Positions 2,454-64,000 of a stretch of DNA of 64,000 nucleotides are shown one piece after another. Under the pieces are notes generated by a model. That model saw only the letters and a list, made by a program, of their open reading frames with translations. It did no database searches and was not told the DNA's origin. The DNA is from Blasia pusilla (lineage: Eukaryota): assembly GCA_050084515.1 (NCBI GenBank), contig CM114271.1:40362001-40426000 (forward strand), given 5' to 3'. The stretch's first letter is position 1. Every line of letters begins with the position of its first letter. A program made the position numbers and the translations under genes.

Positions 2454-2455
2454 GG

Positions 2456-32150: not shown

Positions 32151-32257
32151 TTGGAGATATTTTGGTACTTCTCGCCTCGGTGTATGGATGCCATGAGTTA
32201 GCATGGGATCGTGTGTGTGTTCGATGACAACGATGTATGTTGTATAGCGATGTGTAT

Positions 32258-32770
32258 TGTCATGTCTTTTAGGATAGATCGGTGAGATCTAGTAGAGCGC
32301 CTTCGTGAGTAGTGGAGAACAGGCCCAGTAGGTCGAGGGTGACCTACTGAGGCCTCGGGAAACCTCAGAGAGCAGGTTTCCCCTTCGTTTCGGCTCATTT
32401 AGAGCCATATTGAGAACCTTACTATTTTAGGTAAGTACCATTTTGAGTATATGATGGACTTTCTATTTTTGGTAAGTGGCCCTTGACCCCTTACATCAGA
32501 TCAAGAGCCAAGGAGGTGACTTGGGAGAATAGGTTACCATGGAGAGAGCTTGGGAGAGGGGAGGGTATACCTCAAGGAGAAAGAGCTTGAGAGCATTCTC
32601 TCTTTGTTGAACCTCTTGGCATGAAGCGGCGGAGCTATGGTTCCTTGCCTTGTAAGTGTAACCCAAGCCTCTTATTAGGAGAGTAGGTTTGGTTTGACAT
32701 GAGAGAGAGTGCACACCTTTGAGAGCTATGGTGTGAGATGATGTAGAGAGAGATTGGATCTTACTTTACA
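32258..32770 (+). mobile_element. Solo-LTR-like repeat 'LTR-X', copy b (513 bp), inside the presumed 5' LTR of copy 1
   Basis: Begins TGTCATG and ends TTTACA. Similar to copy a over its whole length. Confidence 0.7.
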
Positions 32771-35700
32771 AAGGGACAACTTCAACGTCAACCGTAAGGA
32801 TGGACAATGGACGGTAGTCACCGTTAACGGTCCTCCGTCGACGGTCAACCATCACCGTCACCGGTCAAATGTCACTGTCATCGGTCGGCCGTCACCATCA
32901 GCGGTCAACCGTCACCATCAACGGTCCACGGTCCGTTGTCCACCCTTTGGTTGCCATTGCCACCATTACGGAGTGGAGGGTCTTCCACGACGTTCGTTGA
33001 TTCTCTTACTTGCATCGCCACCACGTACTTTGTTTTGGCCGCCACCCTCATCGCAATTTCGTCATCAACTAGTGATGGCAGATGACCTCTGGTTATGGTG
33101 TTTGAGTTTTGATTTTATGCTACTATGTTGTGATTGGTAGCCGCTCGACGACGATCGAGTATCGTGTCCTGACGCCCGTAGCCGCAACGCGCCGCCGATT
33201 GCCGCTCGTGGCCGCACCACACCGTCTCGATCGCAGAGCCGCACCGTCATTGTGGAGCAGAGTGTGGATTTATTGTTGATTGAGGAGGGTATGCCGTCGA
33301 GTGCCGCATCCCACTATCCAGGACCGTGCTGTTCGTAGCCGTTCTGTGCCGCCTGCAACGCCACACCGTTCCGCTGGAACCGCACTGTCTATCGAGGAGT
33401 TTTGAGCAGCGTCAATACGGGAGGAGTATGACTTGCTGATTGGCGGAGTTATCTCCACGACCGAGTTGGGGTCGAGATTTGCAGTTGCTGAGGAGCGACA
33501 TCGACATGTGTTCAAGTTACCTATTTTGGTCCTTTACCCTGCACGTGTGAGGGATTGTGGGATTTGGGTAGTTTATTTGGGGATATTGGGTGTGTGGATG
33601 CTAAGAACATCATTTATGTATATGGTTTAGGGGACATAGACCTGTGTGGAATGTCCGGAGTTGATGGTAGGTTGTCTATGAGATGATATCCTGGTCAATT
33701 TTCCTCACCACGCCGCGTGTTGCCGCACGTTACACGTCTCGGGGAGGGAGAGTGTAGATCGAGTGCCGCATATTTGGGATGAGTGATTACTCATGAGGTT
33801 CAGAGTGATCGGGTGAGAGGGGCACGAGGGTCATCACGGAGTCCGTTCCGGACTTTGAGAGGCGAGGTGGTGAACCCGAGAGTAGCTCTAGAGGTTTTAC
33901 GCGGAGTGGCGTGAGGTTCCGAGGATCTCCACGTGAGGGACCACCTCGACCTCCTTCTGTGTCAACGTCACACGAGGGGGAGGGTGTAGAGGAGTTTGTG
34001 AGCACATCACCATACATTGTGAGCGGTCCTACCAGTTGGGCGTACGAGATGAACTGGTAGGACCGCTCACAGTTCATCTCGTACGTTGTGAGCGTACGAG
34101 ATGAACTGTCCTCTACCCCGGTAGAGGACAGTAGAGGACCGCGAAGGTTTTCAGGTGAGTAGGCACGATTGAGCACGATTTCATAGCAGAGTTTAGGAGT
34201 TGATGCGACTCCCAACGGGCCAGGAACTCTAGAGAGTTCAACCGATTTACAGCATGGAATGGTATGTTCCAGCATTTAGAGGGGGCGCCCATGGACGATT
34301 ACCATGAGTTCTCTCAGAGATATGCACTTGAGATTAAGGCGTGGAGGCTCTACTATGACCCACATTATGTGTCATGGATGGAGCCGTTCCCAGATGAGGA
34401 GGAGGAGTCAAGAGAGGCTACTTCCTCTTCCACTGGTGACATTTTAGGAGGGGTCACTTGCACGGGAGTAGTTGCGCCGTCTAGTCGGGTTCGTCCCAGG
34501 TTCAACCCTGTGGTTGAGTTCTTTGTTGAGTTGAGGGCGAGCTACCAAGGGGTACGGACGGAGAAGTTGCGGAGCATCCACGACTTCCAGAGGCCCTCAA
34601 GTGAGAGTTTGCGTGAGGCTTACACTCGCTTGCGCTGGTTTATCAACGTCACTTAGGGGGTGACAGAGGCTCAGGCTATCCAGTCATGGTACGCAATGCT
34701 GGACCGAACCTTGCGGACACGGGTGCGGGAGGGGATGCTTCTTATGAACACCTCCCCTACGTTGAGAGATGTTTTTAGGACCGCCAAGAACATTGAGCGC
34801 AACATGGTTGAGGAGAGCGTAGCCACCATGGGTTCTAGGCGAGAGCAGTCACGATTGTCTGCACCACTTGTGCAACAACGTGGACTTCGAGATAGATCGA
34901 CTTTGGCACCACGAGCTCAAGGAGGATACCTGGAGGCCGTGCCACAGAGACCTGCGCCTTCATATGCGGCTCTGCAGCGGCCGCCTACTATTACTTGTTG
35001 GTCATGTGGTGGACCCCATCATGAGCGCAATTGCACTCGTCAAGGTCATGGACGTGTGCCTCAGCATGGAGGAGGAGATGGTGCTGCACCAGGAGGTTAT
35101 CAATGTGACGATTGTCAGAGGTATGGTCATACATGCGCAAGGTGTTTCAGTTTACATCATGAGTTACTTCCGGACCGAGGGCCAGAGAGGGCACCAAAGC
35201 GAGTAGCCGGTCCGGATGGGCCTAGAGATTGTGCACCAGGTGGTCCCCTTGGGGGACGAGGAGCTGGAGTTGCCCGACAGGGTGGTGGAGCTGCCCGTGG
35301 AGGAGGTAGAGTACCACCACTTGGACGCGCCGAGGGAAACGCGGGACGTGAGGCTGGGATGGCTGCTCAAATAGAGCAGCTACAGGAGCAGATTGCCGCT
35401 ATGGCATCGAGGTTACCCGATGCCGGATCCGTGGCATCGAGATCATATGGAGTAGCTAGAGATCTGGAGGATCCTGGTTGGATGTGCGAGGTTGCCTAGA
35501 TGGAGGCCGCCGTAGTTGTGGTGCGTGGAGCAGCCGTAGAGTTGGATCCACAATGAGGGGAGGCCTTAAAAAAGACTAGGCTTCCTCAGTCTTTCACATT
35601 GTCGGAAGCGATGAGGACCCCATCGATGGGTCCTCATCAAAGTTCTTGGAGAGTTGGTGATGTTCTTGGTGAGCAGGCACGGAGGGCGATGGGAGAAGCG

Positions 35701-36834
35701 AGTGCGACGACTCCTATTGTTGATGCTCAAGAGGGGCATGTGTCAAGCACGTTGTTGGGGCGGCCACCGTTTTGTACCACACTCCTTTATTTTCTGCTTT
35801 CGATGTTATGATGTTTGGGGGTACGCCCGCCAAGGCTTTTTGGCTGGCCGCTTCACTATGTGAGCGCGGAGTTGGAGTTCTTGCATCACGTTCAGAGGTG
35901 ATCGCAGAGGAGGTGATGGACCTGCCCTTGGAGTGGATGCTCGGGCCGTCCACGTCATATTCATGGTAGGCTGGGGCTGCTAGGACGGCGGAGATGCCCG
36001 CTAGACCCGCGATAGAGCGTGCCATGGCTTCTCCTCGTGTTGTGTTGCTTGATAACCAAGGAGAGGTCTTCCAGTTGGTGAGTCCTGGAGGTAGAGCTTT
36101 TAGTCCCCAGCGCGTCTTGTTGGATTCAGGAGCGCAACCCCTGATGCTGGGGAAAGCGTCATTTAGAGGATTGGGCTTGACGAGAGTCGATGTGGAGCGT
36201 TGTCCATTCCGGATACAAACATCCTTGGATGGAGCGAGTACCACACAGTATATCACCCGATAGGAGGTTATGGTGAGGATTCGCCTGGGACATCCTACAG
36301 ATGAGTCCGTGGTGCGTGCCAAGGCGATAGTGACTGATGCAGAGTCCTACGACGTCTTGGTTGGTGGAGGAGTGTTATACCCGATGGGGTTTTCCCTGGA
36401 TTACTGGGAGGAGTCAGCGTCCTACAGACCAGGATGGCAGTCAAGTGATGGGCGCCTTAGCTCATTACCCGTTCGATTCACATGTATAGTGATCGAGCAA
36501 CCGCCAGGAGAGATGGCAACCTTAGCAGCATTTAGCAGTGCCATCACTTGGCCTAGTGATTTGATTGAGGGACATGTCCATGCAGAGGATACTCCCGTTC
36601 CTGAAATTTCAATGGAGAGGAGTGTTATGGTATCTGCATCATTCCGTGGAGGAGAGGTGCCGCTGTGGGGCTCGACTGAGGATCTTCGACGATTGGTAGA
36701 TGAGCACGTGCAGACCGCGTGGAGCGAAGCGTTTGCACCGGAGCGTGACGGGTCTGAGGAACCCGAGGTTGCAGGTAGTGCTACGATGACACCCTTGGAT
36801 ACCACACCCATTGTGTGGTGTACTTGGGAGAAGG

Positions 36835-37430
36835 GTATTCGAGTGTTAGATCTCTTTGGAGGGATTAGCACCGGGTTAGCTGTTGTTTTGCAGGCATGAG
36901 TGCGAGTACAACAATACCTGTATGTGGAGAGTGAAGATGTTGCGAGGTGCGTCTCACTACGACATGTGACGCAGTTACGCCTACGTCTTCCCCACTTATT
37001 GTCTGCGTCCGCAGTACAGGAGTTCCAGAGTTCCCTACCGAGGGATATTTCGTTGTTGGGGGCGCAGGACTTAGAGCCAGTAGGGACCATTGATTTGGTC
37101 ATTTCCGGTTGGCCATGTCAAGGCCAATCGAGTGCTGGACGAGGCAGCGGGTTGAATGACACTCGGTCCAGGTTGTTTTGGGAGATGTTGAGGATCTTAC
37201 AACAGTTGCAGGAGCACCAGTCTTGTTCTCCAGCCTACATTGTGGAGAATGTGCCGATCTTAGGAGACTCCAGGTCACGGGTGGTGACGAGTGCTCATCA
37301 GGTGCATGCCTGGATGTCCTACAGGAGTGACGGCAGTACTGCGAGTGTCAGAGGCATCACGACGCCATGTCTTGGGTCAGGCGATGGACTTAAACTGCTT
37401 GACATGGATCCTCAACTTGGGAGTGGCTGA
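36835..37430 (+). pseudogene. C5 cytosine methyltransferase domain in copy 1, internally deleted
   Basis: IRVLDLFGGISTGL (motif I), IDLVISGWPCQGQS (IV), YIVENV (VI). At ~37316 it jumps straight to the motif IX/X region, lacking about 370 bp present in copies 2 and 3. Confidence 0.9.
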
Positions 37431-40400
37431 GTAGCATCGTATGAGATCGCAACAGATCACAGCGGTTGTGTTGGTGAGCCCCATGCCTACCGAGACGGTG
37501 GAGGCAGTGGCTGGGGGCGAGACCCGAGGAGATCTACGCACCAGGGGAGATTGGGAGAGACACCCTTGGACTTATTGGGATGTTTTGCAGGTAGGCCAGG
37601 AGATGATAGCCCCAACATCGAGCGTGGTTTCGAGCACTACACGTGGAGGAGATTAGAGTTTGCAGTCGGCTGTAGGAGAGCGACTGAGTGTTGTTGTTCA
37701 AGACGGGGTTGCACCATAGCAACCACCGATACCCACGCCGGAGAGTCCTACCGTAGTCACGATGGAGACTTGGGAGCCAGATATGGGCCCTAAGTTGACA
37801 GGAGGAGAGCGGCGCGAATACATCAGGTTCTCAGGAGTTATAGGAGCTGCTACATTAGGTCCTCAGGAGAACGCTGAAGAGACCGGGGATCCGCATTGAG
37901 TTGTCGAGTGATACGCCGATCTTGCGACGACCTTACAGGTATAGTGATATGGAGAGGGCTCTGATTTAGAGTAGGATCCAGGACTTGGTCAGAGCAGTAC
38001 TAGTGGAGATGTCGTATGGGGAGTATGCATCTGCCACTATCATGCCCACCAAGAAGGATGTGCATGGCAACTGGACGGATAGGCGGATGTGTGGGGATTA
38101 CCGACCTATCAATCGGCAGACAAAATCCAATAGGTGTGCCATGCCCACCCCTGAGGAGATCTTTGATGCGATTGGTCACGAAAAGGTCTTCAGTTCATTG
38201 GATTTGTGAGCCGGATACCATCAGCTGCCTATCTGATTGGAGGACAGGCAAAAGACGGCATTTTGGGGCATCGATCCTCACGGGAAGGATTGTTTGTACC
38301 AGTGGCGGTTCTTACCATTTGGGTTAAAGAACGCCACAGTTGAGTTTCAGAGGGTCATGGATAGGATCTTGGCTGGTCTGGATTTTGCTAGGTGTTATAT
38401 TGATGACATCGTAGACTTTAGCGCCACGGTTGAGGAGCATGAGCAACATCTACAAGAGGAGTTTCGACCATTGCAATTACATGGGCTGAAGCTACATCCA
38501 TGAAAGTGCAAGTTTTTCTACGACCAGATTAAGTACTTGGGTCATAAGATATACCCAGGGGGCCTTGGTGTTCAGTAGACGAAGGTAGAGGCTATCTCAT
38601 GCATTCCACGCCCTACAAATGTGAGCCGTGTTCGCGCATTCATGGGATTGGCGAACTTCTATCGGCGATACGTCAAGGGATTCACTTCGATTGCGAAGCC
38701 GCTCACCTTGCTGACCAAGGTGGATCACGAGTGGTAGTGGGGGGATGAGCAGGAGCGAGCATTTTAGTTGCTCAAGGACAGGTTGACGTCTGTGCCCACC
38801 TTGAGGAGACCGATCAGGGGGCGTCCTTTCCAGTTGCACACAGATTGGAGCATGTTGGGGCTTGGAGCGGTGCTCACCCAGCATGATGATAAGGGTAGAG
38901 AGTTCGTGGTGGCTTACGCTAGCCGCTCAAACAACGCTGCACAGGCAAAGTACAGCTCGTATGAGGGTGAGTGCTTGGCTGCGTGTGGGTTGTCGCGCAT
39001 TTCAGGTGTTACTTATTCGACAACCCCTTTACCATCATCACTGATCATCAACCACTGAAGTGGTTGATGTAGTCCGACAAGCTTACAAGGAAGCTTGCGA
39101 GATGGGCTGTGTTGTTGCAGGAGTATGATTTTCAAGTGGTACATAGACCTAGGATTGCTCAACCAAGATTGAGATGGGTTGAGTCGTAACCCATGCTTGA
39201 GTCAGCGAGATGCGACTGGAGCTCGATGGCATGGAGAGAGTGATGAGGAGTTGGTGCTAGGATGGCATGCGTGAGCCTATTTAGGCATGTTGGCTATGGA
39301 GAGCCAGAGTGTGGAGACTTCGATGGCAAGGTCTAGTGGAGAGTCCTTAGATCCCGAGGCCAGTGAGGAGACGACAATTGGCCGAGATATTCATGATGAT
39401 GGAGTAGTCTTGGAGTACCTTCGTACTGGCAACGTTGCGAGCACCGTGGATGCTAGAGAGCAGGATCAGATCCTACACCGGGCCAGACGGTTCCGTTGGG
39501 AGGGGACACATGTTTTGAGGGTTTGGGAGGATGGTAGAGTATGCGTAGTGCCTCATCCTTCGCAGAGAGCACGACTAGTGCAGCATGCCCACGAGGAGTT
39601 GGGTCACTTTGGGGTGAAGCGGACGTACAACTTGCTCCAGATTCAGTATTGGTGGCGAGGCATGCAAACTGACGTTCAGCAGTTTGTTGCGAGATGCATG
39701 ATGTGTGATCGGGTCCGAGCATCGTTCAATGCTTTGACTCCACAGTTGCATCCATTACCGATCATGGGCTTAGGGTATAGGTGGAGTTTGGATTTTGCAG
39801 GACCTTTTCCTTTCATGGAGCGTCACAGTCGTTATGTGTTGGTGATGGTCGAGCACTTCTCGAAGTGGATCGAGTTGGTTGCATTGCCTGACAAAGCAAG
39901 TGAGGGAGTAGCTTATGCCTTCCTTGACAAAGTGCTGAGTCATTATGGCGCAAAGAAATTGAGGTGTTGACAGACGGTACCGAGTTTCGGTGAGTTCTAG
40001 GCCTTGTGTGATGGCCGATCGACCACCGCGACGACCGCGAGATCATCCCAAGGCGGATGGATTAGCGGAGAGAGTTGTGCAGACGGTGAAGAGGGGTTTA
40101 CGCAAGTATGGCTTGCAAAGTGGTCACCTAGGAGATTGGGACCTTCAATTGCCCAGGTTGGCGATGGGATACAGATTCAGCAGGCAGGCATCCTTAGCAT
40201 CTTTTTCACCGTACTTGCTACTTTATGGCCGAGAGCCAGATTTACCTGCGGCCATTCGTCGAGATGATGGTGAGGTGCTGGACTTTGATGACCCATATGT
40301 ATGGATGCGAGCATGTTCTCAGAGGGCTGAGTTGTTTTGGAGAGTGATGCCCATAGCGTTCGAGAACTTGGCGATTGCGCAACATCAGGATACGTTGAGG

Positions 40401-43400
40401 TATGCGACTGTTCGGGCTGGTGGTTATCGACCAACTATCAGGATGTTTCATCAGGGAGATTATGTCTACTTGCAGCAGACGGCACCGACGACGTCGGATG
40501 TGACTGCAGGGCGCACTATCCTGAGAGTGCGTGACGTTTTGCCATCGTGACCCTCCATTGGTGGAGGGACGCGATGGTATGGTATGGAAGGACCATGTGC
40601 GTAATTGTGCGCCATGTCATCTTCCTAACATTGATGGTATAGTAGATCCGAGCTTAGCAGTAGTTCCTGCAGGCTTGCGTTGTATGTTGTGTGGTTCTAC
40701 CCGTGATGCGGCCACGATGCTAGTCTGTTAGACGAAAAATTACAAAGTTTATTTAGGGGATGGCAAATTGTAAAAATAGTCATCCAAAAATACTCACAAT
40801 CTCGCATCTTCCTGTTCCTTGATTTGGAATTTATTTTTGGATGGAATCATTAAGGAAAAATGGAACCATAAATGGAATTCATATTGTGAGTAGTCGTACA
40901 TCACCTGCAACACACTCACAAAATTGCGGGCAAATGAAAATGTAACTATGACTAACTTAATTGATAACTAAGATGCAGGTTTTCAAGTAGCTCATATTAT
41001 GCAATTAATTTCAATGAAAAATTTTTAAATTTGCCACAAATAAATTTGACCATGCTTGTAGTTTTTGGGTGGGAGTGGACTAGTTTATTTCATGCTTTTA
41101 AGACTCACTCGAACCAAAAATACACAAAAAAAAGTGTGGAAAAGTTTAAAATAAAAAAGTACTTTTTGTTGTATCATGGGGCATGGTTCTCGTCATGAGA
41201 ACATATTAAGACACTTGTTTCCCTTAGCATTAACAGTACCCAATCTAACATCAACAATAGAATCAATAATTAGAGATGTCAGTGAATTATAATTGTAGCA
41301 TACACCTATAATTTCAATAAATGAAGCGTATATTCATACGAGGAAAAATCACTTTATCAAATGATATTTAGATGATTAAAGATACCAAAAGCACATATTA
41401 GACTTTAGAAATCATGGTATGTGAATCAAATGTGTGTGAAAGTAAGTGGATGAATAAAGATGATAAATTCTAGTTTATCAATATTAATTTTGTAAATCGG
41501 GCTAGCAAAAGTATTTAAAACTCATTTTTGCCACAAACACATAAGGAACAAGTTTTGAAAAAAACCTATAATTAAGAAGTTCAAACAAGATCCCCTACTA
41601 GCACATGTCTACACCAAATTATTATCTTCTTCTGCTTGGATCTCATATCTTGTATGCCTCGTAAAAAATACATGTCAACTATTGCATGTCCTAAAATACG
41701 TTAGGACTTAAGAGGCGCTCCTCTTTCAATAGTTTGGATATTATTATTATTAATAAAATAAGATTACTAGAAATATTGGTCCTTTGTATTATTTTGTGCA
41801 TGAAATTCATTATTTTGGTTTATGGTTATGATCAAAAGCATAAGTTTGTACATAATTCTCCACGTAGTTGAATGCAAGTGTATGATGCTTCCCTATGAAT
41901 CTAGTCTTTTACGAGATTACCGAATTAGTATCTTATTCCTTCTCATTTATATCCTACTATCGGATTGAATTTGAAATAACCAAACTAGAGACAATTTACA
42001 AGAAACCTCAAATTCTCAACTTTGAAAGAGAACACAACATTGAATTAAAATAGGACGGGAGAATTGAGAAAAAGGGGCAATAAAAGAGCAGAGGAACTTC
42101 AAGGGTACTCTTGACAAGGGAACTTAGAAGGCAGGGAACCCCAAAAACATAACTTCACCCTAAACGGAAATACTACAAAGCATAGCTAAAGATCATGATT
42201 ACTAGCACGAATACTATCAAGCATAGCTAAAGAACATGATTAGTAGGGAGCCTCTAGGAATGTCATTCATTGCCCTAGGCTCTTTGCAAAGCAAGAGCTA
42301 CAATTTTGATACACTATGAAATGGATATAATTTACATAGACCATCTTAGTTTCCATTCACTCATATATTTTCCATTAAAAGATATTTTGGTCTCATGGAC
42401 CGAAATAGTAAAACACGACAATAATCATGTGTGGAAATTCATCGACTTCTTTAAAGGTAGGAATTACAGCATGTATGACTTATCCTTTATTATTAAATCC
42501 TCCCCTCCTTTATTTGATATTCTTTCTTTCTTAAAAGCACACGTTTTTTTTTTCTTTTCCGCCGAAATAAATATTTAAATAAAAGCCAACTTGACCAGGC
42601 AAGTCGTCGTTGAAAAAAGCCAACTTGACCAGACACGTGTCGCATGCGGAGTGGAGCTGAGCTCCGTCCGACAAAGTCTACCCCGCCCATAAAAACCAAT
42701 AAAAAATGGGGTGTTTTGGTGCCGCAGCTCCACTCCGCTCCGCAGCGAGTCACTCAGAAGTCCCGTTTGTGCTCTGGTAGATTCCCGATCAGACAGGGAG
42801 ACAGCCGTGACGCAAGGCCCGGGGAGAACCGGGGCTACGTGTTGACCTGGCCGGTTAAAATCGAGACTGGCCGTTTCTTTTCCCGACTCGCCGGTAAGGC
42901 CCGGGCCGAGAAGAAGTTCGTCTCGCAGTACTTCGCGGGTAATATTCGGCCGGAGCTTAGCGGAGTAAAGTCGGGAAATTAGCGGGGGTAGCGGAGTAAA
43001 GGCGGGGAAGTGTCCACGGAGGAGCGCCGTGAGACAGAGAATGAGGGGAATGAATGTACATTAAGGACAAAGTACGCACATTTGGACTTGAAGGCGGAGA
43101 AGAATACGGATGGCATTAACAACGGCGAGCGCTTGAATGCGGTGGGGGGCGCCGGCGACGACATTTGGATCGGGGACGAGGAATTCAAAGTCCATACAGT
43201 GAGTGGGGAAGGAGAGCGAAGTGCGTGCGTTTCGCCGTCCGTTTGACTGTTTCATCGCTCTCCGGATGACTGTGTGTACGTACGTACAGGAGCGGCGATG
43301 TCCGGGACAATCGCGGCCCTAAATCCCGATCATCTCCCGCAGTAACTCATCCGCTTCCGGATACCTCGTTCGTTCGAGCGCTCGCGGTGCTCCATATAGT

Positions 43401-44665
43401 TGGCGTGTCGCCTGTTTCTGGCAGTGGGAAACGGCGAAGAAGGGGGAGGGAGGGAGGGAGAGATCGGCCTCGCCATCATTCGGAGGGATCCCGAATCCCG
43501 ATTCCGCCCCTGCGTGCATCCGGAGCAACGAATATCGGCCTCGCCTGCCTCCGGAAGGACCCCGATTCCACCCCTCCGTGCATCCGAAGCAACAACGCCT
43601 TTCGCAAATAATCGAACGGCGAACGAGAAAGAAAGAAAGAGGATGGCGAAAAGGAGAGGATCTACGTGCGAGAGCCAGCGCTGTCCTGTTCTTGTCCCGG
43701 TGCCGGCTGAAAGAAGAAACGGGACATGAATAGATAACAGGAGTGAATTGGGAAAATCGAGTGAGCCACTCTGGAGCCTAGCGTACGCGAGAAAGCGAGA
43801 CAGAAACGAGAGGGGGAGGGAGCGAGGACGCGTGGGGCCCAGAGGAGAAAGAAGCGCGAGCTTGACCAGACCTGCGACGATCGCGGGAAGGTGAGTGGAA
43901 GCGTAGAACGAAACAGAGGAAGAGGCGGAGGACGAGGAGCAAGAAAAGGAATGTGGAGAGTGGGCCTGCGAACGGGCGCAGAGATGGCGGGGTCAAACTC
44001 AGAAGCACTCGCGGCACAGGGGATGGAGAGGAAGGGTTCTTGAGCGTGAGCGTGCGCGAGAGAGTGAGAGAGGAGAGGAGGGGGGAGAGGGTGAGAAAAT
44101 TCGCACTGACAGTGTTTTTGGTCGGGGGCAGAGAAATTTCGATTCTCACTCGTGCTGTGGGTGTCGGCGAATATGATTTCGTAGCGCAAGCAGCGTCCGG
44201 GGCACTCCTGCCGTGTGGTGAATGGGCTGAGCCTTAACCCGTGGACCCTGCCGCATTGACGACGTGCCGCTGTAATCGCTCCATGCGCCGATCCGTTCCT
44301 TCCTTCCTTCCATCATGGCGGAACGAGAAAGTAGACCCTACTCTCAGAGAGGTCGGGACCCTGGCCTTCAGGACGCTTCCACTGGTCGTCGTTGTTGCAA
44401 TCTATGGTAGAGGGTTCCCAGCGCTAATTTTATTTTGTGTCGCGTGCTGTCGCTCTTGTGATTGTTGGTTGGTTTGCGAAGTATCGAATCGGCGGACGCG
44501 AGTCCTGTAATCTCTAGCAGAATCTGCAGCTGCACGCATACGCCGTGGACATGGTGCCAGCCGGCTGGTTCCTCTTAGCTGTTGGGCTGAACGGGCAATT
44601 ATGGGCGGCCATGGGTTTAGATTGAAGGAACCAGGAACCTTTGGAGAAGGATAGATAGAGGCAGG

Positions 44666-50139: not shown

Positions 50140-50561
50140 ACCGAATCCCTACTATTCCCGATTCGGTCACATCGGCACATGTAGGTACCACTTTCGGTCG
50201 ACGGCGTCGCAGTCTTTCCGTAAATAGTTCCGGTAGTTTAGTGATTGACGACTTGGTGCATCCAAATAGTTCGCACGGTCCTCGGCACTCGATCCGGAGG
50301 GTAGAGAAAGCACAATTTTCCTTATAGGGGTTATCGGAGTTCTATTCTTAGGTATCACATGATTAAAGCGAGCATCCCAACACGTGGCATGATCGAAAGG
50401 TTACTAAGTGCTATGAAATTCCAACGTTTAGTCCTCCCTTAACTAGTTTTGGATATAAATAATATTTCTAGTGTTTTGGACATGATCAAAAAGTTGTTAC
50501 ATGAGCTAAGTCTCCAAAATTGAGTCATGTTTTGAATTGTTTTCTTAACACGAATAAAAAT

Positions 50562-50980: not shown

Positions 50981-51297
50981 GTTGTCGTGCGCATACACAT
51001 TACTACACAATATACATCGCTGTCATCGAACACACACACAAACACACACGATCCCATGCTAACTCATGGCATCCATACACAGAGGCAAGAAGAACCAAAA
51101 TATCTCCAATCGCCCCCCTAGCTGGTGGTTAGGTCCCTCTAACTCCAGATAGCCATCTATCCCTACCTACCATGACATACATCTCTAGGACGCTAAGAGA
51201 AGAAAGGTCGGATGCTCATGTGGCCCCATCGTTAGTCGCCTTCCTGTCATCCATGTCACAGAAAAAAGTCAGAATCGAAACCTACCTAGTATCTCCT

Positions 51298-51441
51298 CTA
51301 TGTACACCTGGGACACATCCATCGTCCCCGAGGAACCCTAGTGAGAGGTGACGTCAGACATGCCATATGCCAACCTCTCAAACATCCATCACAAGCTAGC
51401 ATCATGGCCGCACCACGAGCAGAACCACACAACATACAACG
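51298..51441 (-). other. PHD zinc finger at the integrase C-terminus of copy 2
   Basis: CMLCGSARGAAMMLACDGCLRGWHMACLTSPLTRVPRGRWMCPRC has canonical Cys4-His-Cys3 spacing with W before the last CxxC. Confidence 0.92.
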
Positions 51442-54400: not shown

Positions 54401-54699
54401 CGGTGGTTGCTATGGTGCAACCCCGTCTCAAACAAAAACACTCGGTCACTCTCTTGCAGCCAACTGCAAACTTGATCTCCTCCACGTGCAGTGCCCAGAA
54501 CCACGCTCGATGTTGTGGCTATCATCTCTTGGCGTACCTGGAAAACATCCAAAGAAGTCCAAGGGTATCTTTCCCGATCTCCCCTGGTGAGTAGATCTCC
54601 TCGTATCTCGCCCCCAGCCACTGCCTCCACCGTCTCGGTAGGTATGGGGCTCACCAACACAACCATTGTGATCTGTCGTAATCTCATACGGCAATGCTC

Positions 54700-55640
54700 A
54701 GCCACTCCCAAGCTGAGGATCCATGTCAAGCAATCCAGGTCCATCGCCTGACCCAAGACATGGCATCGTGATGCCTCTGACACTGACGGTACTGCCATCA
54801 CTCCTATGGGAAATCCCATCGCTCGCTCTCTCTTGTCGGCGTTGGGCTCCACCAACCGCTCAACCTGGTCATCCCAAACCAAGCCACGACCGGCCTCCTT
54901 GTTTGCATAGGAAGCGGGAAAACTCACAAACGTGGGCAAGGCTGCTCGCGGCGTGTCTACCCTGTTGACCATAGTCAACAGTGGTCGATCATTGTGCCTC
55001 ATTGCCTGTGATCGACGATCTAGATTCAGAATGGAATCCACTAACAAATGGGAGGGGCGCTCCACTCTCGCATACGCCCTCCGTAACACCGTATGGGGCA
55101 CCAAGTTGGTCCACCATAGACGCGGGCCATTGGCTCTAGAACCTACACTCGCCGCATCTAAGAACACTACTGGGCTGATCTAGGCATGCACATGATGAGC
55201 ACTAGTCACCACCCGTGACCTGGAGTCTCCTAAGATCGGCACATTCTCCAGAATGTAGGCTGGAGAATGAGACTGGTGCTCCTTCAACTGCCGTAAGACC
55301 CTCGACATCTCCCAAAACAACTTGGACCAAGTGTCAGCAATACTCGATTGGCCATGACATGGCCAACCGGAAATGACCAAATCAATGGTACCTATCTGCT
55401 CTAAGTCATGTGCCCCCAGCAACAAAATATCCCATGGTAGGGAACTCTGGTACCCCTATACCGCGGATGCAAACAATAAGTCGAGAAAACGTAGGCGTAA
55501 TTGCGCTCAATTTTGTAGTGAGACGCGAAACTTTCCACATACAGGTATTTTTGTACTCACACTCCTCCTTGCAAAAGAGCAGTTAACCTGGTGCTAATCC
55601 CTCCTTGAATCCCTCCAAAGAGATCTAACACTCGAATACC
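54700..55640 (-). pseudogene. C5 cytosine methyltransferase domain in copy 2
   Basis: IRVLDLFGG, IDLVISGWPCHG, YILENV, FLDAASVGSRANGPRLWWTNL, ERAMGFP and RCHVLGQAM across ORFs 55557-55766, 55180-55425 and 54373-55167. Confidence 0.9.
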
Positions 55641-58327
55641 CTCCTCCGCGATACACCACACAATGGGTGTGGTATCCAAGGGTGTCATCCTAGCACTCCT
55701 TGCTACCTCAGGTTCCTCAGAGCCATCACGCTCCGGTGCAAACGCCTCGCTCCACGCGGTCTGCACGTGCTCATTGCCAATCGTCGAAGCTCCTCAATCA
55801 AGCCCTACAACGGCACCTCTCCTCCACGGAATGATGCGGCTACCATAACACTCCTCTCCATAGAAATGTCAGGAATGGGAGTATCCTCTGCATGGACATG
55901 TCCCTCAATCAAATCACTAGGCCAAGTGATGGCACTGCTAAATGCTGCTAAGGTCGCCACCTCTCTTGGCCGTCGCTCGATCACTGCACATGTGAATCGA
56001 ATGGGTAATGAACTAAGGCGCCCATCACCTGACTGCCATCTTGGTCTGTAGGACGCTAACTCCTCCTAGTAATCCAAGGAAAACCCCATCGGTTATAACA
56101 CTGCTCCACCAACCAAGATGTCGTAGGACTCTGCATCAGTCACTATCGCCGTGGCTTGCACCACGGACTCATCTGTAGGATGTCCGAGGCGAATCCTCAC
56201 CACGACCTCCTATCGGGTGATCCAGGATGTTTGTATCCAGAATGGACAACGCTCCACATCGGCTCTCGTCAAGCCCAATCCTCTGAATGACGCTTTCCCC
56301 AACATGAGGCGTTACGCTCCTGGATCCAACAAGACGCGGTGCGGACTAAAAGCTCTACCTCCAGGACTCATCATCTGGAAGACCTCTCCTTGGTTATCCA
56401 GCAACACAACACAAGGAGAAGCCATGGCACCCTCTATCGCAGGTCTAGCGGGCATCTCCGCCATCCTAGCAGCTCCAGCCTGCCATGAATCTAACGTGGA
56501 CGGCCCGAGCATCCGCTCCAAAGGCAGCTCCATCACCTCCTCTGTAATCACCTCTAAACGTGATGCAGAAACTCCAACTCCGAGCTCACATAGTGAAGCG
56601 GCCAGCCGAAAAGCCTCGGCGGGCGTTAGGATTTAGGGTAAAGCCCCGGTGTGCGTACCCCCAACGTCATAACATCGGAAGCACAAAATAAAGGAGTGCG
56701 GTACGGAACGATGGCTGCCCCCAACAACATGCTCGACACATGCCCCTCCTGAGCATCAACAATAGGAGTCGTCACACTTGCTTCTCCCATCGCCCTCCGT
56801 GCCTGCACACCAACAACATCACCAACTCTCTAAGAACTTTGATGAGGACCCATCGATGGGGTCCTCATCGCTTCGGACAACGTGAAAGACTGAGGAAGCC
56901 TAGTCTATTTTCTGGCTTCCCCTCGGTGTGGATCCAACTTTGCGGCTACTCCACGCATCACAATTGCCGCGGCCTCCATCTAGGAAACCCCGCACATTCA
57001 ACCAGGATCCTCCATATCTCTGGCTGCTCCATATGATGTTAATGCCACAGATTTGGCATCGGGTAACCTCAATGCCATAGCGGCAATCTTCTCCTGTAGT
57101 TTTTGTATGTGAGCAACCATCCCAGCCTCACGTCCGGCATCTCCCTTGGCGCGTCTAGGTGGTGGTACTCTACTTCCTCCACGGGCAGCTCCACCACCCT
57201 GTCGGGCAACTCCAGCTCCTCGTCCCCCAACGGGACCACCTGATCCACGATCTCTAGGCCCACCCGGACCGGCTACTCGCTCTGGTGCCTTCTCTGGCCC
57301 TTGGTCCGGACGTAACTCAAGATGTAAACTGAAACACCTTGGCGTGTGTATGACCATACCTCTGACATTAGTCACACTGATAATCTCTTGGTGCAGCACC
57401 ATCTCCTCTTCCATGTTGAGGCACACGTCCATGATGCTCACGAGTGCAATCGCGGTGATGATGGGCTCCACCACATGACCAACAAGTAATAGTAGGCGGC
57501 TGCTGCTGAGCCGCATATGAAGGCGCGGGTCTTTGTGGCACGGCCTCTCGGTATCCTCCTTGAGCTCGTGGTGCCACAATCGACCTATCTCGGAGTCCAC
57601 GTTGTTGCATATGTGGTGCTGCCAATCATGACTGCTCTCCCCCAGAACCCATGGTGGCTACGCTCTCCTCCGCCATGTTGCGCTCAATGTTCTCGGCGGT
57701 CCTAAAAACATCTCTAAACGTAGGGGAGGTGTTCATAAGAAGCACCCCCTCCCGCACCCATGTGCGCAGGGTCCGGTCCAGCATCACGTACCATGACTGG
57801 ATAGCCTGAGCCTCTGTCATCCCTTGAGTGACGTTGATCAACCGGCGCAAGCGAGTGTAAGCCTCCCGCAAACTCTCACATGGGCGCCTATGGAAGTCGT
57901 GGATGCTCCGCAACTTCTCCGTATGTACCCCTTGGTAACTCGCCTCAACTCAGCAAAGAACTCAATCACAGGGTTGAACCTAGGGACGAACCCGACTAGA
58001 TGGTGCAACTGCTCCAGTGCGAGTGACCCCTCCTAAAACGTCACTAGTGGAAGAGGAAGTAGCCTCTCCTCACATCTCCTCCTCATCTGGGAACGGCTCC
58101 GTCCATGACACATAATGTGGGTCATATTAGAGCCTCCACGCCTCAATCTCACGTGCATATCTCTGAGAGAACTCATGGTAATCGTCCATGGGCGCCCCCT
58201 CCAAATGCTGGAACATACCGTTCCATGTTGTAAACGGGTTGAACTCTCTAGAGTTCCTGGCCCGCCGGGAGTCGCATCAAGTCCTAAACTTGCTATGAAA
58301 TCGTGCAACTCAATCATGCCTACTGCC

Positions 58328-61300
58328 TAATTGCAATTGTCAAAACACCTCCTCTAGATGTTGCTCGTGCTCCTCAACCGTGGCGCTAAAGACTACGATG
58401 TCATCAATATAACACCTAGCAAAATCTAGACCAGCCAAGATCCTATCCATGACCCTCTGAAACTCAGCCGGGGCGTTCTTTAACAAATGGTAAGAACCGC
58501 CCTTTGGTACAAACAATCCTTCCGTGAGGATCGATGCCCCAAAATGCCGTTTTTCTGCTGTCCTCCAATCGATAGGCGGTGATGGTATCCAGCTCGCAAA
58601 TCCAATGAACTGAAGACCTTTGCGTGACCAATCGCATCAAAGATCTCCTTAGGGGTGGGCATGGCATACCTATCGGACTTCGTCTGCCGATTGATAGGTC
58701 GGTAATCCCAACACATCCGCCTATCCGTCCGGTTGCCATGCACATCCTTCTTGGCGGGCATGACAGTGGCAGATGCATACTCCCCATGCGACATCTCCAC
58801 TAGTCCTGCTCCGACCAAGTCTTGGCTCCTACTCTGAATCAGAGCCCTCTCCATATCATTGTACCTGTAGGGTCGTCGGAAGATCGGCATATCACTCGAC
58901 AACTCAATGCGGATCCCGGTCCCTTCAAAGATACCCAAATCCTCCATGCTAAACGCAGCGGCTCCTATAACTCTTGAAGGCGATGTATTGGCGCCGCTCT
59001 CCTCCTGTCAACTTAGGGCCCATATCGGCTCCCAAGTCTCCATCGTGACTACGGTAGGACTCTCGCGGCGGGTATCGGTGGTTGCTATGGTGCAACCCCG
59101 TCTCGAACAACAACACTCGGCCGCTCTCTTGCAGCCAACTACAAACTCGATCTCCTCCACGTGCGAGTGCCGAAACCACGCTCGATCTTTGTGGCTATCA
59201 TCTCCTTGCGTACCTTCAAAACATCCCAAGAAGTCAAGGGTGTCTCTCCCGATCTCCCGTGGTGCGTAGATCTCCTCGGGTCTCGCCCCGACCCACGCTT
59301 TGCCTCCACCGTCTCGGTAGGCATGGGGCTCCAACGCTTATAACGGCCATTTGTGATGTCGCGATCTCATACGCGTTATTTGCTCGTAAGCAAGCATGTC
59401 ATCCATGTCAAGCGATTCAGGTCCATCGCTGACCCAAGACATGGCGTCGTGATGCCTCGACAGCGATGGTCTGCCGTCACTCTCTGGGAAATCCCATCGC
59501 CGCTCTCTCTCGTTGGCGTTGGGCTCCACCAACCGCTGAACCTGGTCATCCCAAACCAAGCCAGGACCGGCCTCCTTGTATGCATAGGAAGCGGAAAACT
59601 CACAAGCGTGGGCAAGGCGCGCGCGGCTGCCTACCCCTGTTGACCACGTCGGCGGTGGTCGATCATCGTGCCTCACTGCCTGTGATCGACGACCTGGATC
59701 CAGAATGGAATCCACTAACAAAGGGGAGGGGCGATCCACTCTCGCATACGCCCTCCATAACACCGCATGGGGCACCAAGTCGGTCCACCATAGACGCGGG
59801 CGATGGGCTCTAGAACATACACTCGCCGCGTCCAAGAACACTGCTAGGCCGCTCCAGGCACGCACCTCATGAGCACTCGTCACGACTTGTGACCTGGAGT
59901 CTCCTAAGATCGGCACATTCTCCAGAATGTAGGCTGGAGAACGAGACTGGTGCTCCTGCAACTGCCGTAAGACCCTCAACATCTCCCAAAACAACCTGGA
60001 CCGAGTGTCAGCCAACCCGCTGCCTCGTCCAGCACTCGATTGGCCCTGACATGGCCAACCGGCAATGACCAAATCAATGGTCCCTACCCGCTCTAAGTCT
60101 TGCGCCCCCAACAACAAAATATCCCTCGGTAGGGAACTCTGGTACCCCTGTACTGCGGACGCAGACAATAAGTCGGGAAAACGTAGGCGTAATTGCGCCA
60201 CATGTCGTAGTGAGACGCGCCTCGCAACATCATCACTCTCCACATACAAGTACTGCTGTACTCGCACTCCTGCCTGCAAAACAGCAGCTAACCCGGTGCT
60301 AATCCCTCCAAAGAGATCTAACACTCGAATACCCTCCTCCGGGGTACACCACACAATGGGTGTAGTATCCAAGGGTGTCATCATAGCACTCCCCGCTACC
60401 TCGGGTTCCTCAGACCCGTCACGCTCTGGTGCAAACGCCTCGCTTCCACGCGATGCGCACGTGCGATCGCCAATCGTTGAAGCTCCTCAGTCGAGCCCCA
60501 CAGCGGCACCTCTCCTCCACGGAATGATGCAGCTACCATAACACTCCTCTCCATAGAAATGTCAGGAACGGGAGTATCCTCTGCATGGACATGTCCCTCA
60601 ATCAAATCACTAGGCCAAGTGATGGCACTGCTAAATGCTACTAAGGTCGCCATCTCTCATGGCCGCGTTGCTCGATCCTTTCGCACTGTGAATCGAAGCG
60701 GGTAATGAGCTAAGGCGCCCATCACGACTTCCATCTGGTGCAGGGGGCGACTCCTCCCAATAATCCAGGGAAAACCCCATCGGGTATAACACTGCTCCAC
60801 CAACCAAGACATCGTAGGACTCAACATCAGTCACTATCGCCTTGGCGCGTACCACGGACTCATCTGTAGGATGTCCCGGGCGAATCCTCACCACGACCGC
60901 CTGTCGGGTGATATACTGTGTGGTACTCACTCCACCCAAGGATGTCTGTATCCAAAATGGACAACACTCCACATCGGCTCTCGTCAAGCCCAATCCTCTG
61001 AATGACGCTTTCCCCAACATCAAGGGTTGCGCTCCTGAATCCAACAAGACGCGCTGCGGACTAAAAGCTCTACCTCCATGACTCACCAACTGGAAGACCT
61101 CTCCTCGGTTATCCAGCAACACAACACCAGGAGAAGCCATGGCACGCTCTATCGCGGGTCTAGCAGGCATCTCCGCCATCCTAGCAGCCGCAGCCTGCCA
61201 TGAATATGACGTGGACGGCCCGAGCATCCGCTCCAAGGGCAGGTCCATCACCTCCTCTGCAATCACCTCTGAACGTGATGCGGGAACTCCCAACTCGGCG

Positions 61301-64000
61301 CTCACATAGTGAGGCGGCCAGCCGAAAAGCCTCGGCGGGCGTACCTCCCAACGTCACAACATCGGAAGCAGAAAATAAAGGAGTGCGGTACACAACGGTG
61401 GCCGCCCCCAACAACGTGCTCGACACATGCCCCTCCTAAGCATCAACAATAGGAGTCGTTGCACTCGCTTCTCCCATCGCCCTCCGTGCTTGCACACCAA
61501 CAACATTACCAACTCTCCGGGAACTTTGATGAGGACCCATCGATGGGGTCCTCATCGCTCGGCTAACGTGAAAGATTGAGGAAGCCTAGTCTCTCTCTTG
61601 GCTTCCCCTCTTTGTGTGGATCCAACTCACGGCTGCTCCACAGCGTCACAAGCTGCGGCGGCCTCCATCTGGGCAACCCCGCACATCCATCCGGGATCCT
61701 CCGGATCTCTGCTGCTCCATATGATGTCGATGCCACGGATCCGGCATCGGGTAACCTCAATGCCATAGCGGCAATGCGCTCTCTGTAGTTGTTGTATCGG
61801 CGACCATCCGACCTCACGTCCGGCATCTCCTCGGCGCGTCTAGGTGGTGGTACTCTACCTCCTCCACGGGCGGCTCCACCACCCTGTCGGGCAACTCCAA
61901 CTCCTCGTCCCCCCAACGGGACCACGGAGCACGATCTCTAGGCCCACCGGACCGGCTACTCGCTCTGGTGCCCTCTCGGCCCTCGGTCGGACATAACTCA
62001 GGATGTAAACTAAAACACCTGGCGTGTGTATGACCATACCCTCGAAAATAGTCACACTGATAATCTCTTGGTGCAAAGCACCATCTCCTCCTCCATCTTT
62101 GAGGCACACGTCCATGACCCGGACCCGGTGCAATCGCGGCGATGATGGGCTCCACCACATGACCAACAAGTAATAGTAGGCGGTCTGCTTTGAGCCGCAT
62201 ATGAAAGCGCAGGTCTTTGTGGCACGGCCTCTCGGTATCCTCCCCGAGCTCGTGGTGCCTGATCGACCTATCTCGAGTCACGTTCTTTGCCGCAGGTGGT
62301 GCGAGACAATCGTGATTGCTCTCGCCAGAACCCATGGTGGCTACGCTCTCCTCCGCCATGTTGCGCTCAATGTTCTCGGCGGTCCTAAAAACATCTCTCA
62401 ACGTAGGGCGGTGTTCATAAGCGGCACCCCCTCCCCACCCGTGTCCCGCGGGGTTCGGTCGGCATCGCATACCATGTTGGATAGCTTTGAGCCTCTGTCA
62501 CCCCCGAGTGGCGTTGATCAACCGGGCGCAGCGAGTGTAAGCCTCACGCAAACTCTCACCCGGCGCCTCTGGAAGTCGTGGATGCTCCGCAACTTCTCCG
62601 TCCGTACCCCCTGGTAGCTCGCCCTCAACTCGACAAAGAACTCAACCCACGAGGGGTTGAACCTAGGACGAACCGGCTAGAGCGGTGCAAGCTGCTCCCG
62701 TCTGAGTGACCCTTCCTAAAGCGTCACTAGTGGAAGAGGCCGTAGCCTCTCGACTCCTCCTCCTCATCTAGAACGGCTCCGTCCATGACACATAATGTGG
62801 GTCATAGTAGAGCCTCCACGCCTCGATCTCACATGCATATCTCTGAGAGAACTCATGGTAATCGTCCATGGGCGCCCCCTCTAAATCTTTGGAACATACC
62901 GTTCCATCTTTGTAAACGGGTTAAACTCTCTAGAGTTCTGGCCCCCCATTGGGAGTCGCACCAACTCCTAAACTCTGCTATAAAATCGTGCAACTCAATC
63001 GTGCCCCTCGCACTGAAAACTACGCGGTCCTCTACCCCGTGCCGTCCATCTCAAATGCATGGCCCAACTGGTAGGACCACTCACAATGTGTGGCGATGTG
63101 CTCACAAACTCCTCTACACCCTCCCCTCGTCGACAATGACACGAGGAAGGAGGTCGAGGTGGTCCCTCACGTGGAGACCCTCGAAACCTCGCGCCACTCC
63201 GCGTAAAACCTCTAGAGCTACTCTCGGGTTCACCACCTCGCCTCTCAAAGTCCCGAGCAGACTCGTGATGACCCTCGTGCCCCTCTCACCCGATCACTCT
63301 GAACCTCGTGAGGAATCCCTCAATCACTCATCCCAAACATGCGGCACTCGATCTACACTCTCTCCCGAGGCGTGTAACGTCGCGGCAACACGCGCGGCGT
63401 GGTGCGGCAAATAGACCAGGCTATCATCTCATCGACAACCTACCCTCAACTCCGGACATCCCACACAGGTCTATGTCCCCTAAACCACATACATAAATGA
63501 TGCTCTCAGCATCCACACACCCAATATCCCCAAATAAATCCCACAATCCCTCACACGTGTAGGGTAAGGACCGAGAATGGGTAACTGAACACATGTCGAT
63601 GTCGCTCCTCAAAGAATCGCAAATCTCGACCCCAACTCGATCGTGGAGACAACTCCTCCAATCAGCAAGTCATACTCCTCCCGCATCGATCTTTGCTCAA
63701 AACTCCTCGATAGACACGATGCGGTCCCAATGCGGGCAGTGAACGGCGTTGGCGTTGCGGCGGCGCACGGGCGGCTCTGAACGGCACGGCCCTCGATGGT
63801 GGGATCGGCACTCGGCGGCATACCCTCCTCAATCAATAATAATCCCACACTCGCTCCACAATGACGGTGCGGCTCGCGTCGAGATGGTGCGGTGCGCTCA
63901 CGAGCGGCACGGCCCGGCAATCGGCGGCGTTGCAGGCCGCGCGGGCGTCCACGCACGATACTCGATCGTCGTCGGCGGCTACCAATCACAACATAGCGAG
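58328..64000 (-). mobile_element. Methyltransferase-carrying Ty3/gypsy retrotransposon, copy 3 (runs off the window end; truncated in RT just after YIDD)
   Basis: 64000 downward aligns with copy 1 from ~33120. Gag, protease (ORF 60631-61305, VLLDSGAQ), MTase (ORF 59338-60384) and RT N-terminus (ORF 58480-58947). Many 1-2 nt indels. Confidence 0.92.
59338..60384 (-). CDS. Best-preserved retrotransposon-encoded C5 cytosine methyltransferase frame (348-aa ORF, frameshifted near its C-terminus)
   Basis: Motifs I (VLDLFGGISTG), II (YVESDD), IV (IAGWPCQG), V (DTRSRLF), VI (ILENV), VII-VIII (FLDAASVCSRAHRPRLWW) and IX-like (EPNANERER) all lie in this ORF. Confidence 0.88.
   Translation of the reverse strand: MMTPLDTTPIVWCTPEEGIRVLDLFGGISTGLAAVLQAGVRVQQYLYVESDDVARRVSLRHVAQLRLRFPDLLSASAVQGYQSSLPRDILLLGAQDLERVGTIDLVIAGWPCQGQSSAGRGSGLADTRSRLFWEMLRVLRQLQEHQSRSPAYILENVPILGDSRSQVVTSAHEVRAWSGLAVFLDAASVCSRAHRPRLWWTDLVPHAVLWRAYARVDRPSPLLVDSILDPGRRSQAVRHDDRPPPTWSTGVGSRARLAHACEFSASYAYKEAGPGLVWDDQVQRLVEPNANERERRWDFPESDGRPSLSRHHDAMSWVSDGPESLDMDDMLAYEQITRMRSRHHKWPL

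Follow-up and report, generated by a model that had tools for sequence, protein, structure and literature searches.

The window considered here is a 64,000-nucleotide (nt) stretch of the genome of Blasia pusilla (GenBank assembly GCA_050084515.1, contig CM114271.1, positions 40,362,001–40,426,000 of the forward strand), and all coordinates below count from its first nucleotide. Comparison of the window with itself by BLAST reveals three copies of one Ty3/gypsy retrotransposon family, situated at 31.6–40.7 kb on the plus strand and at 50.6–64.0 kb on the minus strand. The domain order of the family is Gag–protease–linker–cytosine-C5 methyltransferase–reverse transcriptase (RT)–RNase H–integrase–PHD finger. 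It is probable that these are three dead insertions of one high-copy liverwort family that belongs to the KnitGypsy-Dnmt3 lineage, with a mechanism that we infer to involve stop codon readthrough, self-methylation and the PHD finger.

Copy 1 is on the plus strand at about 32150–40723. Copy 3, on the minus strand, runs from 63996 to 58328, leaves the window, and is equivalent to positions 33123–38479 of copy 1. Copy 2 is also on the minus strand (58324–51396, equivalent to 34158–40723 of copy 1), and a long terminal repeat (LTR) is found about 290 nt further on, at 51110–50562. The Pfam DNA_methylase profile (PF00145) matches copy 1 (E = 2e-12), copy 3 (E = 1.1e-11) and copy 2 (E = 3.3e-06), and the RVT_1, RT_RNaseH, Integrase_H2C2 and rve profiles match copies 1 and 2. 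In these two copies the Pfam and tblastn matches show protease, RT, RNase H and integrase in that order, the integrase following the RT as in Ty3/gypsy pol genes.

Copy 1 begins with two LTR sequences in tandem. A 5′-truncated LTR (U1; 31639–32150, plus strand), which lacks the first ~110 nt and is 84.7% identical to 32260–32768, adjoins a full LTR (U2; 32151–32768, plus strand) that matches the copy 2 LTR. An untranslated leader (32769–34158) extends up to the start of gag; its segment 33123–34041 corresponds to the leader of copy 3 (86%), and the gag match begins at 34159. The gag region (34159–35634) aligns with residues 18–490 of the Marchantia protein P0005 and has 4 stops. A CCHC-like knuckle motif, CWSCGGPHHERNC, is readable in its translation; that frame is without a Pfam match, and the relatives P0081 and P0245 show a zf-CCHC match. 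Protease (LLDSGAQP ... YDVLVGG) and a conserved linker occupy 35751–36830, followed by the DNMT3-like methyltransferase (36831–37584), with motifs I, IV (PCQ), VI (ENV) and the IX/X part kept. RT and RNase H (37883–39162) contain 11 stops and one frameshift. At 39275–40723 come the integrase, whose H2C2 finger is at 39557–39721 and whose core starts at 39776, and the initial 18 residues of the PHD finger; all these features are on the plus strand.

The other two copies, both read on the minus strand, complement this map. In copy 2, the segment 55531–58324 contains gag, which begins at about codon 18, together with protease and linker; a methyltransferase with three stops is at 54544–55530 (ENV, an altered motif VIII, and IX/X present), and RT, RNase H and integrase, with stops and frameshifts, at 51439–54358. 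Next, at 51298–51438, come the PHD finger and the terminal stop codon of the polyprotein, and then the 3′ LTR (50562–51110), which has a G-rich polypurine tract ahead of it and is missing its last ~65 nt. Copy 3 has leader, gag, protease and linker at 60487–64000, where it leaves the window. A 382-residue open frame (59338–60486) has methyltransferase motifs I, IV, VI and VIII intact, and the start of the RT (58328–59084) ends at the junction with copy 2. Thus copy 1 has a 5′ LTR only, plus the tandem partial LTR, and copy 2 a 3′ LTR only. A tRNA-type primer-binding site and TG...CA ends were looked for, and no clear TGG primer-binding site was found after the window LTR.

The methyltransferase is fused in frame to the protease and is not a host-type DNMT3 gene. 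In copy 1 the protease motif SYDVLVGG and motif I of the methyltransferase, VLDLFGGISTGL, share a single stop-to-stop frame (36264–36899). A sequence-only reading of the window had described a frame of this kind and had argued for a fused domain as opposed to a neighbouring insertion; this is borne out, as every copy has the domain within its polyprotein. The same reading had proposed three copies sharing one domain order, and profile matches were obtained for DNA_methylase in all three, and for RVT_1, rve and PHD. The order Gag–protease–methyltransferase–RT stands in the three copies. Two of its details need amending: copy 1, which it had extended through the PHD finger, holds only the first 18 residues of it, and the start that it gave for the family, 32152, leaves the truncated LTR outside.

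Evidence from sequence and predicted fold places the methyltransferase as a DNMT3-like cytosine-C5 enzyme. A phmmer search of the PDB gives DNMT3A as the best match (E = 1.8e-10), followed by DRM2 (1e-4) and M.HhaI (9e-4); a profile compared with solved proteins gives DNMT3A (7.8e-15), DRM (2.2e-7) and M.HaeIII (3.4e-6), and the nearest solved proteins by sequence are DNMT3A, 3B and 3C. An AlphaFold model of a relative from Calypogeia (P0001), made with an 83-row alignment, has a predicted local distance difference test (pLDDT) score >90 across the methyltransferase; an earlier model with a 6-row alignment (mean pLDDT 38.6) was discarded. The best Foldseek matches of the P0001 model are the DNMT3A/B/C catalytic domains (E = 6e-17, template modelling (TM) score by target 0.78–0.84, 22–24% identity), on which the model superposes over about 325 columns. 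Motifs I, IV (PC), VI (ENV), VIII, IX and X are in unpermuted order, unlike those of DRM, although it takes the three copies and their relatives together to see the full set, no single window copy having all of them in frame. Across families at 55–66% identity, catalytic motifs I, IV (PCQ), VI (ENV), VIII and IX/X are retained. The likeness to host DNMT3A/3B/3C lies in the predicted catalytic fold and the motif order. The differences are that the domain here is embedded in a polyprotein, shows an identity of about 23%, and has no PWWP, ADD or other host-type accessory domain detectable by Pfam in the frames scanned.

Between methyltransferase and RT the three copies have an in-frame TAG codon, at 37717–37719 (plus strand) in copy 1, at 54412–54410 (minus strand) in copy 2 and at 59087–59085 (minus strand) in copy 3. 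All three have an identical 25-nt stretch around TAG CAA CCA, and the coding frame continues beyond it into the RT. Related elements in metagenome contigs show the same arrangement: of 37 loci that extend across the junction, 29 have the RT in the frame of the methyltransferase with one stop at a fixed place between them. The stop context was located in 35 metagenome loci and in window copies 1 and 2. It reads TAG CAA CCC in 24 metagenome loci, TAA CAA CCC in seven, TAG CAA CCA in three (window copies 1 and 2, and L016), TAG CAA CTA in two (L051 and L052) and TAG CAA CTC in one (L018). Five gene models also end at the stop site, two of them from Marchantia, one from Calypogeia and two from elsewhere. 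Proteins from Closterium and Klebsormidium, and P0081, pass through this region uninterrupted. A 5′-truncated relative that begins at motif VIII is seen in L051, L052, L053 and L056 (about 9990–12700), with stop-free frames of 256 and 646 residues split by TAG CAA CTA only.

The sequence CAR YYA immediately after UAG is the signal needed for stop codon readthrough in tobacco mosaic virus (PMC2754532). The present elements resemble that virus in having, ahead of the polymerase part, an in-frame UAG with CAA CCA (window) or CAA CUA (L051) directly behind it. From this context we infer that bryophyte elements would make Gag–protease–methyltransferase as their main product, and that the RT–integrase part would be reached by readthrough. 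Gag-pol readthrough is used by gammaretroviruses. It should be pointed out that the present arrangement, known here from sequence alone, differs from leaky UAG systems in that the stop comes after protease and methyltransferase, not after Gag.

The polyprotein ends in a second domain of interest. In copy 2 the last 45 residues before the final stop form a complete PHD finger (PF00628, E = 2.2e-10), whose nearest solved relatives are the PHD fingers of CHD4, PHF12, KDM5B, KDM5A, DPF3, KAT6A, PHF21A, ATXR5 and AIRE. The majority recognise histone H3 unmodified at lysine 4, which may be taken as a lead to the role of the domain, not as a result. PHD fingers and chromodomains in retroelements have been discussed as possible guides of integration (PMC6673714). 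In chromoviruses a small reader of histone tails at the very end of the integrase is likewise thought to steer integration (PMC6673714). The window family does not have the C-terminal chromodomain of chromovirus integrases; a PHD finger takes that place, and its role is a predicted one only.

None of the three copies is intact. Compared with Marchantia guides, tblastn segments contain 0–11 stops each, and shifts of frame are repeated. The copy 1 methyltransferase has a stop after motif I and an internal deletion of ~121 residues at 37312–37316, which removes motif VIII and the target-recognition part. In copy 2, motif I has a G>R change and motif IV reads PCH with a 6-residue deletion, and ENV is kept; in copy 3 the frame is lost ahead of motif IX/X. 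The survival of PCQ and ENV in copies 1 and 3, pointed out in the sequence-only reading, is confirmed by the motif alignment. The copies are equidistant, with nucleotide identities of 0.892–0.902 over 3,904–4,293 aligned positions (about 10% divergence), and C>T together with G>A accounts for about half of the changes private to copies 1 and 2.

The ends of the copies are irregular as well. Copy 1 breaks off within its PHD finger, at 40723, and gives way to AT-rich DNA; this block extends over 40724–42500 (about 38% G+C), and no 3′ LTR of copy 1 follows it. At 58324–58328 the RT of copy 3 is joined head-to-tail to about codon 18 of the copy 2 gag. No remainder of copy 3 is found beyond copy 2, and thus the junction is not a simple nested insertion; since the three copies are equidistant, an origin of the junction by internal duplication gains no preference either way. 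In the genomic reads, where depth is about 3,000, 238 joints and a further 1,180 loose ends put an LTR end immediately ahead of an LTR start, and tandem LTRs therefore seem common in the family.

Abundance was assessed from a raw genomic run of 1.97 billion letters and three raw RNA runs, mapped to 44621–58324 at an identity of at least 80%. DNA depth has a mean of 0.67 (range 0–1.47) in 13 host bins and is 1,164–3,729 in 17 element bins. The mean is 2,071 for the gag/protease/linker bins and 3,096 for the bins from RT to PHD; the methyltransferase bins have depths of 2,203, 2,285 (core) and 1,164, the low bin spanning the lesions of copy 2 itself. The family amounts to roughly 3,000–5,000 copy equivalents. 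Because the read depth of the methyltransferase equals that of gag and protease, the domain is not missing from most members, and the family was amplified with the methyltransferase on board. The sequence-only reading had supposed an element that was mobile in this state, and a depth roughly 3,000-fold that of single-copy DNA upholds it.

The family is also transcribed. First mates of the RNA reads fall on the minus strand over the host gene and on the plus strand over the element; as this is opposite to the pattern of the plus-strand host gene, the element RNA is sense. Sense depth is 21–240 per bin and antisense depth about a tenth of this. Most RNA reads are <95% identical to copy 2, which indicates that other copies are the ones transcribed. 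A joint found in RNA only skips 1,069 nt of the RT at 53180–54250, with 5 other letters between, and is seen in 14, 23 and 12 reads of the three RNA runs and in 0 DNA reads. Its ends are not GT-AG, and it is therefore probably one transcribed deletion derivative located elsewhere in the genome.

Among the three window copies the ratio of nonsynonymous to synonymous substitution rates (dN/dS) is 0.77–1.08 for the methyltransferase and 0.4–0.9 for gag, protease and RT. These near-neutral values fit decay after insertion and are uninformative on the active lineage. Between the window family and two related metagenome families, the proportions of differing nonsynonymous and synonymous sites in the methyltransferase are 0.24–0.28 (pN) and 0.68–0.90 (pS), and dN/dS is 0.15–0.17 in the two computable pairs, values that are bounds only, as synonymous sites are mostly saturated. 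The corresponding values are 0.14–0.26 for protease and 0.06–0.12 for RT, i.e. constraint on the methyltransferase resembles that on the protease and is weaker than on the RT. The methyltransferase is thus under purifying selection between families. A constrained methyltransferase, as the sequence-only reading had expected, is accordingly found in the comparison of families and not in that of the window copies.

Relatives of the family are found in bryophytes and in charophyte algae. A word-indexed search with the copy 3 frame gave 22 proteins of 29–72% identity, of which 15 are from Marchantia polymorpha, one from Calypogeia fissa (66%) and one from Sphagnum fallax. P0005 of Marchantia is an uninterrupted 1,278-residue frame comprising Gag, CCHC knuckle, protease, linker and methyltransferase, and in P0010 the methyltransferase is joined to RT and RNase H. 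Run against 1.84 billion cluster representatives, a profile matched 8,203 proteins with E ≤ 1e-3, of which 405 reach E ≤ 1e-30. When the best 150 matches were typed by domain seeds, 24 showed the order of the window family (methyltransferase after protease or before RT), 52 had the methyltransferase only and seven the protease only. A different order, RT–RNase H–methyltransferase–integrase, was found in 67 of them, 37 with a PHD finger; this group includes a 'pol' protein of Scenedesmus sp. and many metagenome contigs. This suggests that green lineages carry the module far more widely than one would gather from the searched literature.

The window order includes many Closterium proteins and KFL_009030040 of Klebsormidium nitens (P0249), a partial protein with protease at residues 41–183 and methyltransferase at 311–565, followed by RT, RNase H and integrase. 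An N-terminal extension and the point of insertion between protease and RT are common to Klebsormidium, Closterium and the bryophytes. Relatives occur in Closterium, Marchantia, Calypogeia and Sphagnum, the closest being those of Marchantia polymorpha, Calypogeia and Sphagnum. A further 56 related loci come from metagenome contigs. The longer of these have the order Gag–protease–linker–methyltransferase–RT–RNase H–integrase–PHD, and they have two ordinary LTRs of about 340 bp with 86–94% identity.

Trees were built from 58 proteins with long enough matches to methyltransferase, RT and RNase H, after removal of 11 near-duplicate cluster members. The methyltransferase tree (56 rows) has eight methyltransferase-only rows and window copy 3 added; the RT–RNase H tree has 48 rows, with window copy 1 read with X at stops. 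All 19 rows of the window order lie on one side of a single branch in the methyltransferase tree, with a support of 98 in the Shimodaira–Hasegawa-like approximate likelihood ratio test (SH-aLRT). Klebsormidium, on a long branch (1.67), joins the group that contains the bryophyte clade and the window family at 86. In the RT–RNase H tree, all 11 window-order rows are on one side of a branch (98 SH-aLRT), and copy 1 and Marchantia are paired at 100. The two architectures are thus parted by one 98-supported branch in both trees. The comparison with the charophyte element that the sequence-only reading had in mind places Klebsormidium with the window family in both cases. The Sphagnum fallax protein (P0020) is within the liverwort clade on a short branch of the methyltransferase tree; slow evolution, transfer or contamination could each account for its position.

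Because domain order and both trees group the window family with the K. nitens element, it appears on sequence grounds to be the same retroelement lineage as KnitGypsy-Dnmt3, extended to bryophytes. It belongs to a published lineage, and since the K. nitens polyprotein shares both its order and its tree branch, it is not new in kind. The main text that describes DNMT3-bearing gypsy elements reports them in K. nitens only and does not refer to Marchantia (de Mendoza et al. 2018, PMC5890265), and later papers citing it speak of 'streptophytes' (including 10.64898/2026.05.21.726589). No description of DNMT-bearing retroelements in liverworts or mosses was found in the literature searched, which covered main text.

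The likeness to KnitGypsy-Dnmt3 extends to several features. The two are gypsy LTR elements whose polyprotein contains a DNMT3-type domain without rearrangement, and in each of them this domain shows purifying selection (PMC5890265 for KnitGypsy-Dnmt3). They also have in common the order protease–methyltransferase–RT–RNase H–integrase (P0249) and their joint grouping in the methyltransferase and RT trees. The differences are the land-plant host, the copy number, which is a few in K. nitens as given in the main text (PMC5890265) and thousands here, and the bryophyte UAG after the methyltransferase together with the C-terminal PHD finger, neither of which is seen in the partial K. nitens protein. 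In addition, a figure legend assigns DIRS-like repeats to KnitGypsy-Dnmt3 (PMC5890265), whereas the related metagenome loci have two ordinary LTRs. On this point the terminal repeats of the present family give a mixed picture: copy 1 has a tandem of partial and full LTR, and LTR-to-LTR reads exist, yet the relatives have ordinary LTRs.

The Symbiodinium elements SymbioDIRS-Dnmt3 and SymbioLINE-Dnmt also encode a cytosine methyltransferase, and the former, which is DNMT3-like, methylates CG de novo in yeast (PMC5890265). They belong, however, to the tyrosine-recombinase DIRS and the LINE (long interspersed element) classes, live in another host kingdom, and represent an independent acquisition.

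The host genes of the window lie on both sides of copy 1. A gene for a U-box/ARM (PUB-ARM) E3 ligase, identified by Pfam, occupies 44621–48928 (plus strand), between the element copies. Its large exon is 77% identical to a protein of Marchantia paleacea and 71% to one of Riccia fluitans, compared with 53–61% for lycophyte, conifer and fern sequences and 48% for Sphagnum. The gene is expressed, and its GT-AG introns at 45899–46027 and 46327–47416 are supported by RNA reads. On the other side there is a multi-exon gene for the small-subunit processome protein UTP20 (~12800–25122, plus strand), with four frames that match UTP20_N or UTP20. The affinity of the U-box/ARM gene to Marchantia paleacea and Riccia fluitans, with the UTP20 gene on the other side, establishes an embryophyte host. 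The host is a complex-thalloid liverwort, and the contig is liverwort nuclear DNA with no sign of chimerism seen; the embryophyte origin claimed in the sequence-only reading, and its dependence on a contig that is neither algal nor chimeric, are in this way settled. Between the host gene and the copy 2 LTR there is a short tandem repeat of ~100-nt units (49845–50139) with 77–79% identity.

The arrangement of the polyprotein suggests how the element may work. Ribosomes would mostly halt at the UAG and yield Gag–protease–methyltransferase, and a minority would continue into RT–RNase H–integrase–PHD. Because the UAG lies downstream of the methyltransferase, the enzyme would be made at a Gag-like abundance, and it would be present in the particle where cDNA is synthesised. 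There it would most likely methylate the new DNA of the element de novo, by analogy with what has been proposed for other DNMT-bearing retroelements. The C-terminal PHD finger may tether the integrase to a particular state of the histone H3 tail, much as the chromodomain of chromoviruses is thought to do. The full scheme, in which the element packages its own methyltransferase at structural stoichiometry, methylates its cDNA before integration and uses a PHD-bearing integrase of the unmodified-H3K4-reader type to target silent chromatin, is put forward as a tentative proposal that is rather doubtful in its entirety.

A number of points weigh against this interpretation. In the largest related family the context reads TAG CAA CCC, with a final base that does not conform to YYA, and most stop-bearing loci belong to one family and hence are not independent. 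The window copies themselves encode no functional enzyme. In yeast, KnitGypsy-Dnmt3, the only gypsy-type DNMT3 with a published activity test, produced no methylation, a result that its authors call inconclusive (PMC5890265). The read runs have the same species label and perhaps stem from another individual; single-copy depth derives from about 27 reads, and the threshold of at least 80% identity lets related families raise the depth of the element. The trees are unrooted quick searches with SH-aLRT values only, and Klebsormidium is on a long branch in them.

Other explanations can be weighed against the same evidence. A bryophyte gypsy element might have captured DNMT3 independently from a host gene of land plants, the likeness to Klebsormidium being convergent. 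Capture of DNMTs by retroelements is recurrent (PMC5890265; 10.64898/2026.05.21.726589), the trees have no canonical DNMT3 outgroup, and the long Klebsormidium branch is joined at 86 SH-aLRT only. However, convergence would have to reproduce both the insertion point between protease and RT and the N-terminal extension that Klebsormidium, Closterium and the bryophytes share, and the methyltransferase and RT–RNase H trees each unite the protease–methyltransferase–RT elements by a 98-supported branch; such a capture is very unlikely. A different proposition is that the methyltransferase is retained for something other than methylation of the element's own cDNA, i.e. that host chromatin or RNA is its target, or that the domain works as a DNA- or chromatin-binding or oligomerising module in particle assembly or in the targeting of integration. 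The yeast result is in keeping with this, as is the position of the domain upstream of the stop, with Gag and protease, and hence in structural amounts; RNA methylation has been raised for LINE-type elements (PMC5890265). This proposition sits poorly, though, with catalytic motifs I, IV, VI, VIII and IX/X kept across families, with a model that superposes on DNMT3 catalytic domains and with purifying selection between families, and we judge it unlikely.

The notion of the methyltransferase as a neutral passenger, or as a local artefact such as a nested host gene fragment or a chimeric assembly, and not as a working part of the element, draws on the broken state of every copy and on the dN/dS of 0.77–1.08 among them. 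Yet gag, protease and RT show near-neutral values as well, as expected from decay after insertion, and the ratio falls to about 0.15–0.17 between families. The location of protease and motif I within one frame, a read depth equal to that of gag and protease, 405 related clusters at E ≤ 1e-30 and host genes of liverwort affinity on both flanks also speak against it. This explanation is already contradicted by the present evidence, and its probability is negligible.

The probable reading, of a high-copy liverwort family in the KnitGypsy-Dnmt3 lineage, addresses the open question of what a retrotransposon gains from carrying an enzyme that normally silences it. The single published gypsy-type case concerns a charophyte alga with few copies and a negative activity test (PMC5890265). 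What is new is the land-plant host range, the very high copy number, the leaky-stop arrangement, the PHD finger and the sister architecture in green algae. The lineage lives in land plants, with thousands of copies in one liverwort, and the family is still transcribed. Uninterrupted Gag–protease–methyltransferase frames exist in Marchantia polymorpha, a haploid model that can be transformed and for which methylome methods are established, and the question is thus experimentally approachable, the leaky-stop context and the integrase PHD finger being two concrete, testable parts of the mechanism. If the proposed scheme were true, this would be a retroelement that installs its own silent state, yet has reached thousands of copies in a land plant.

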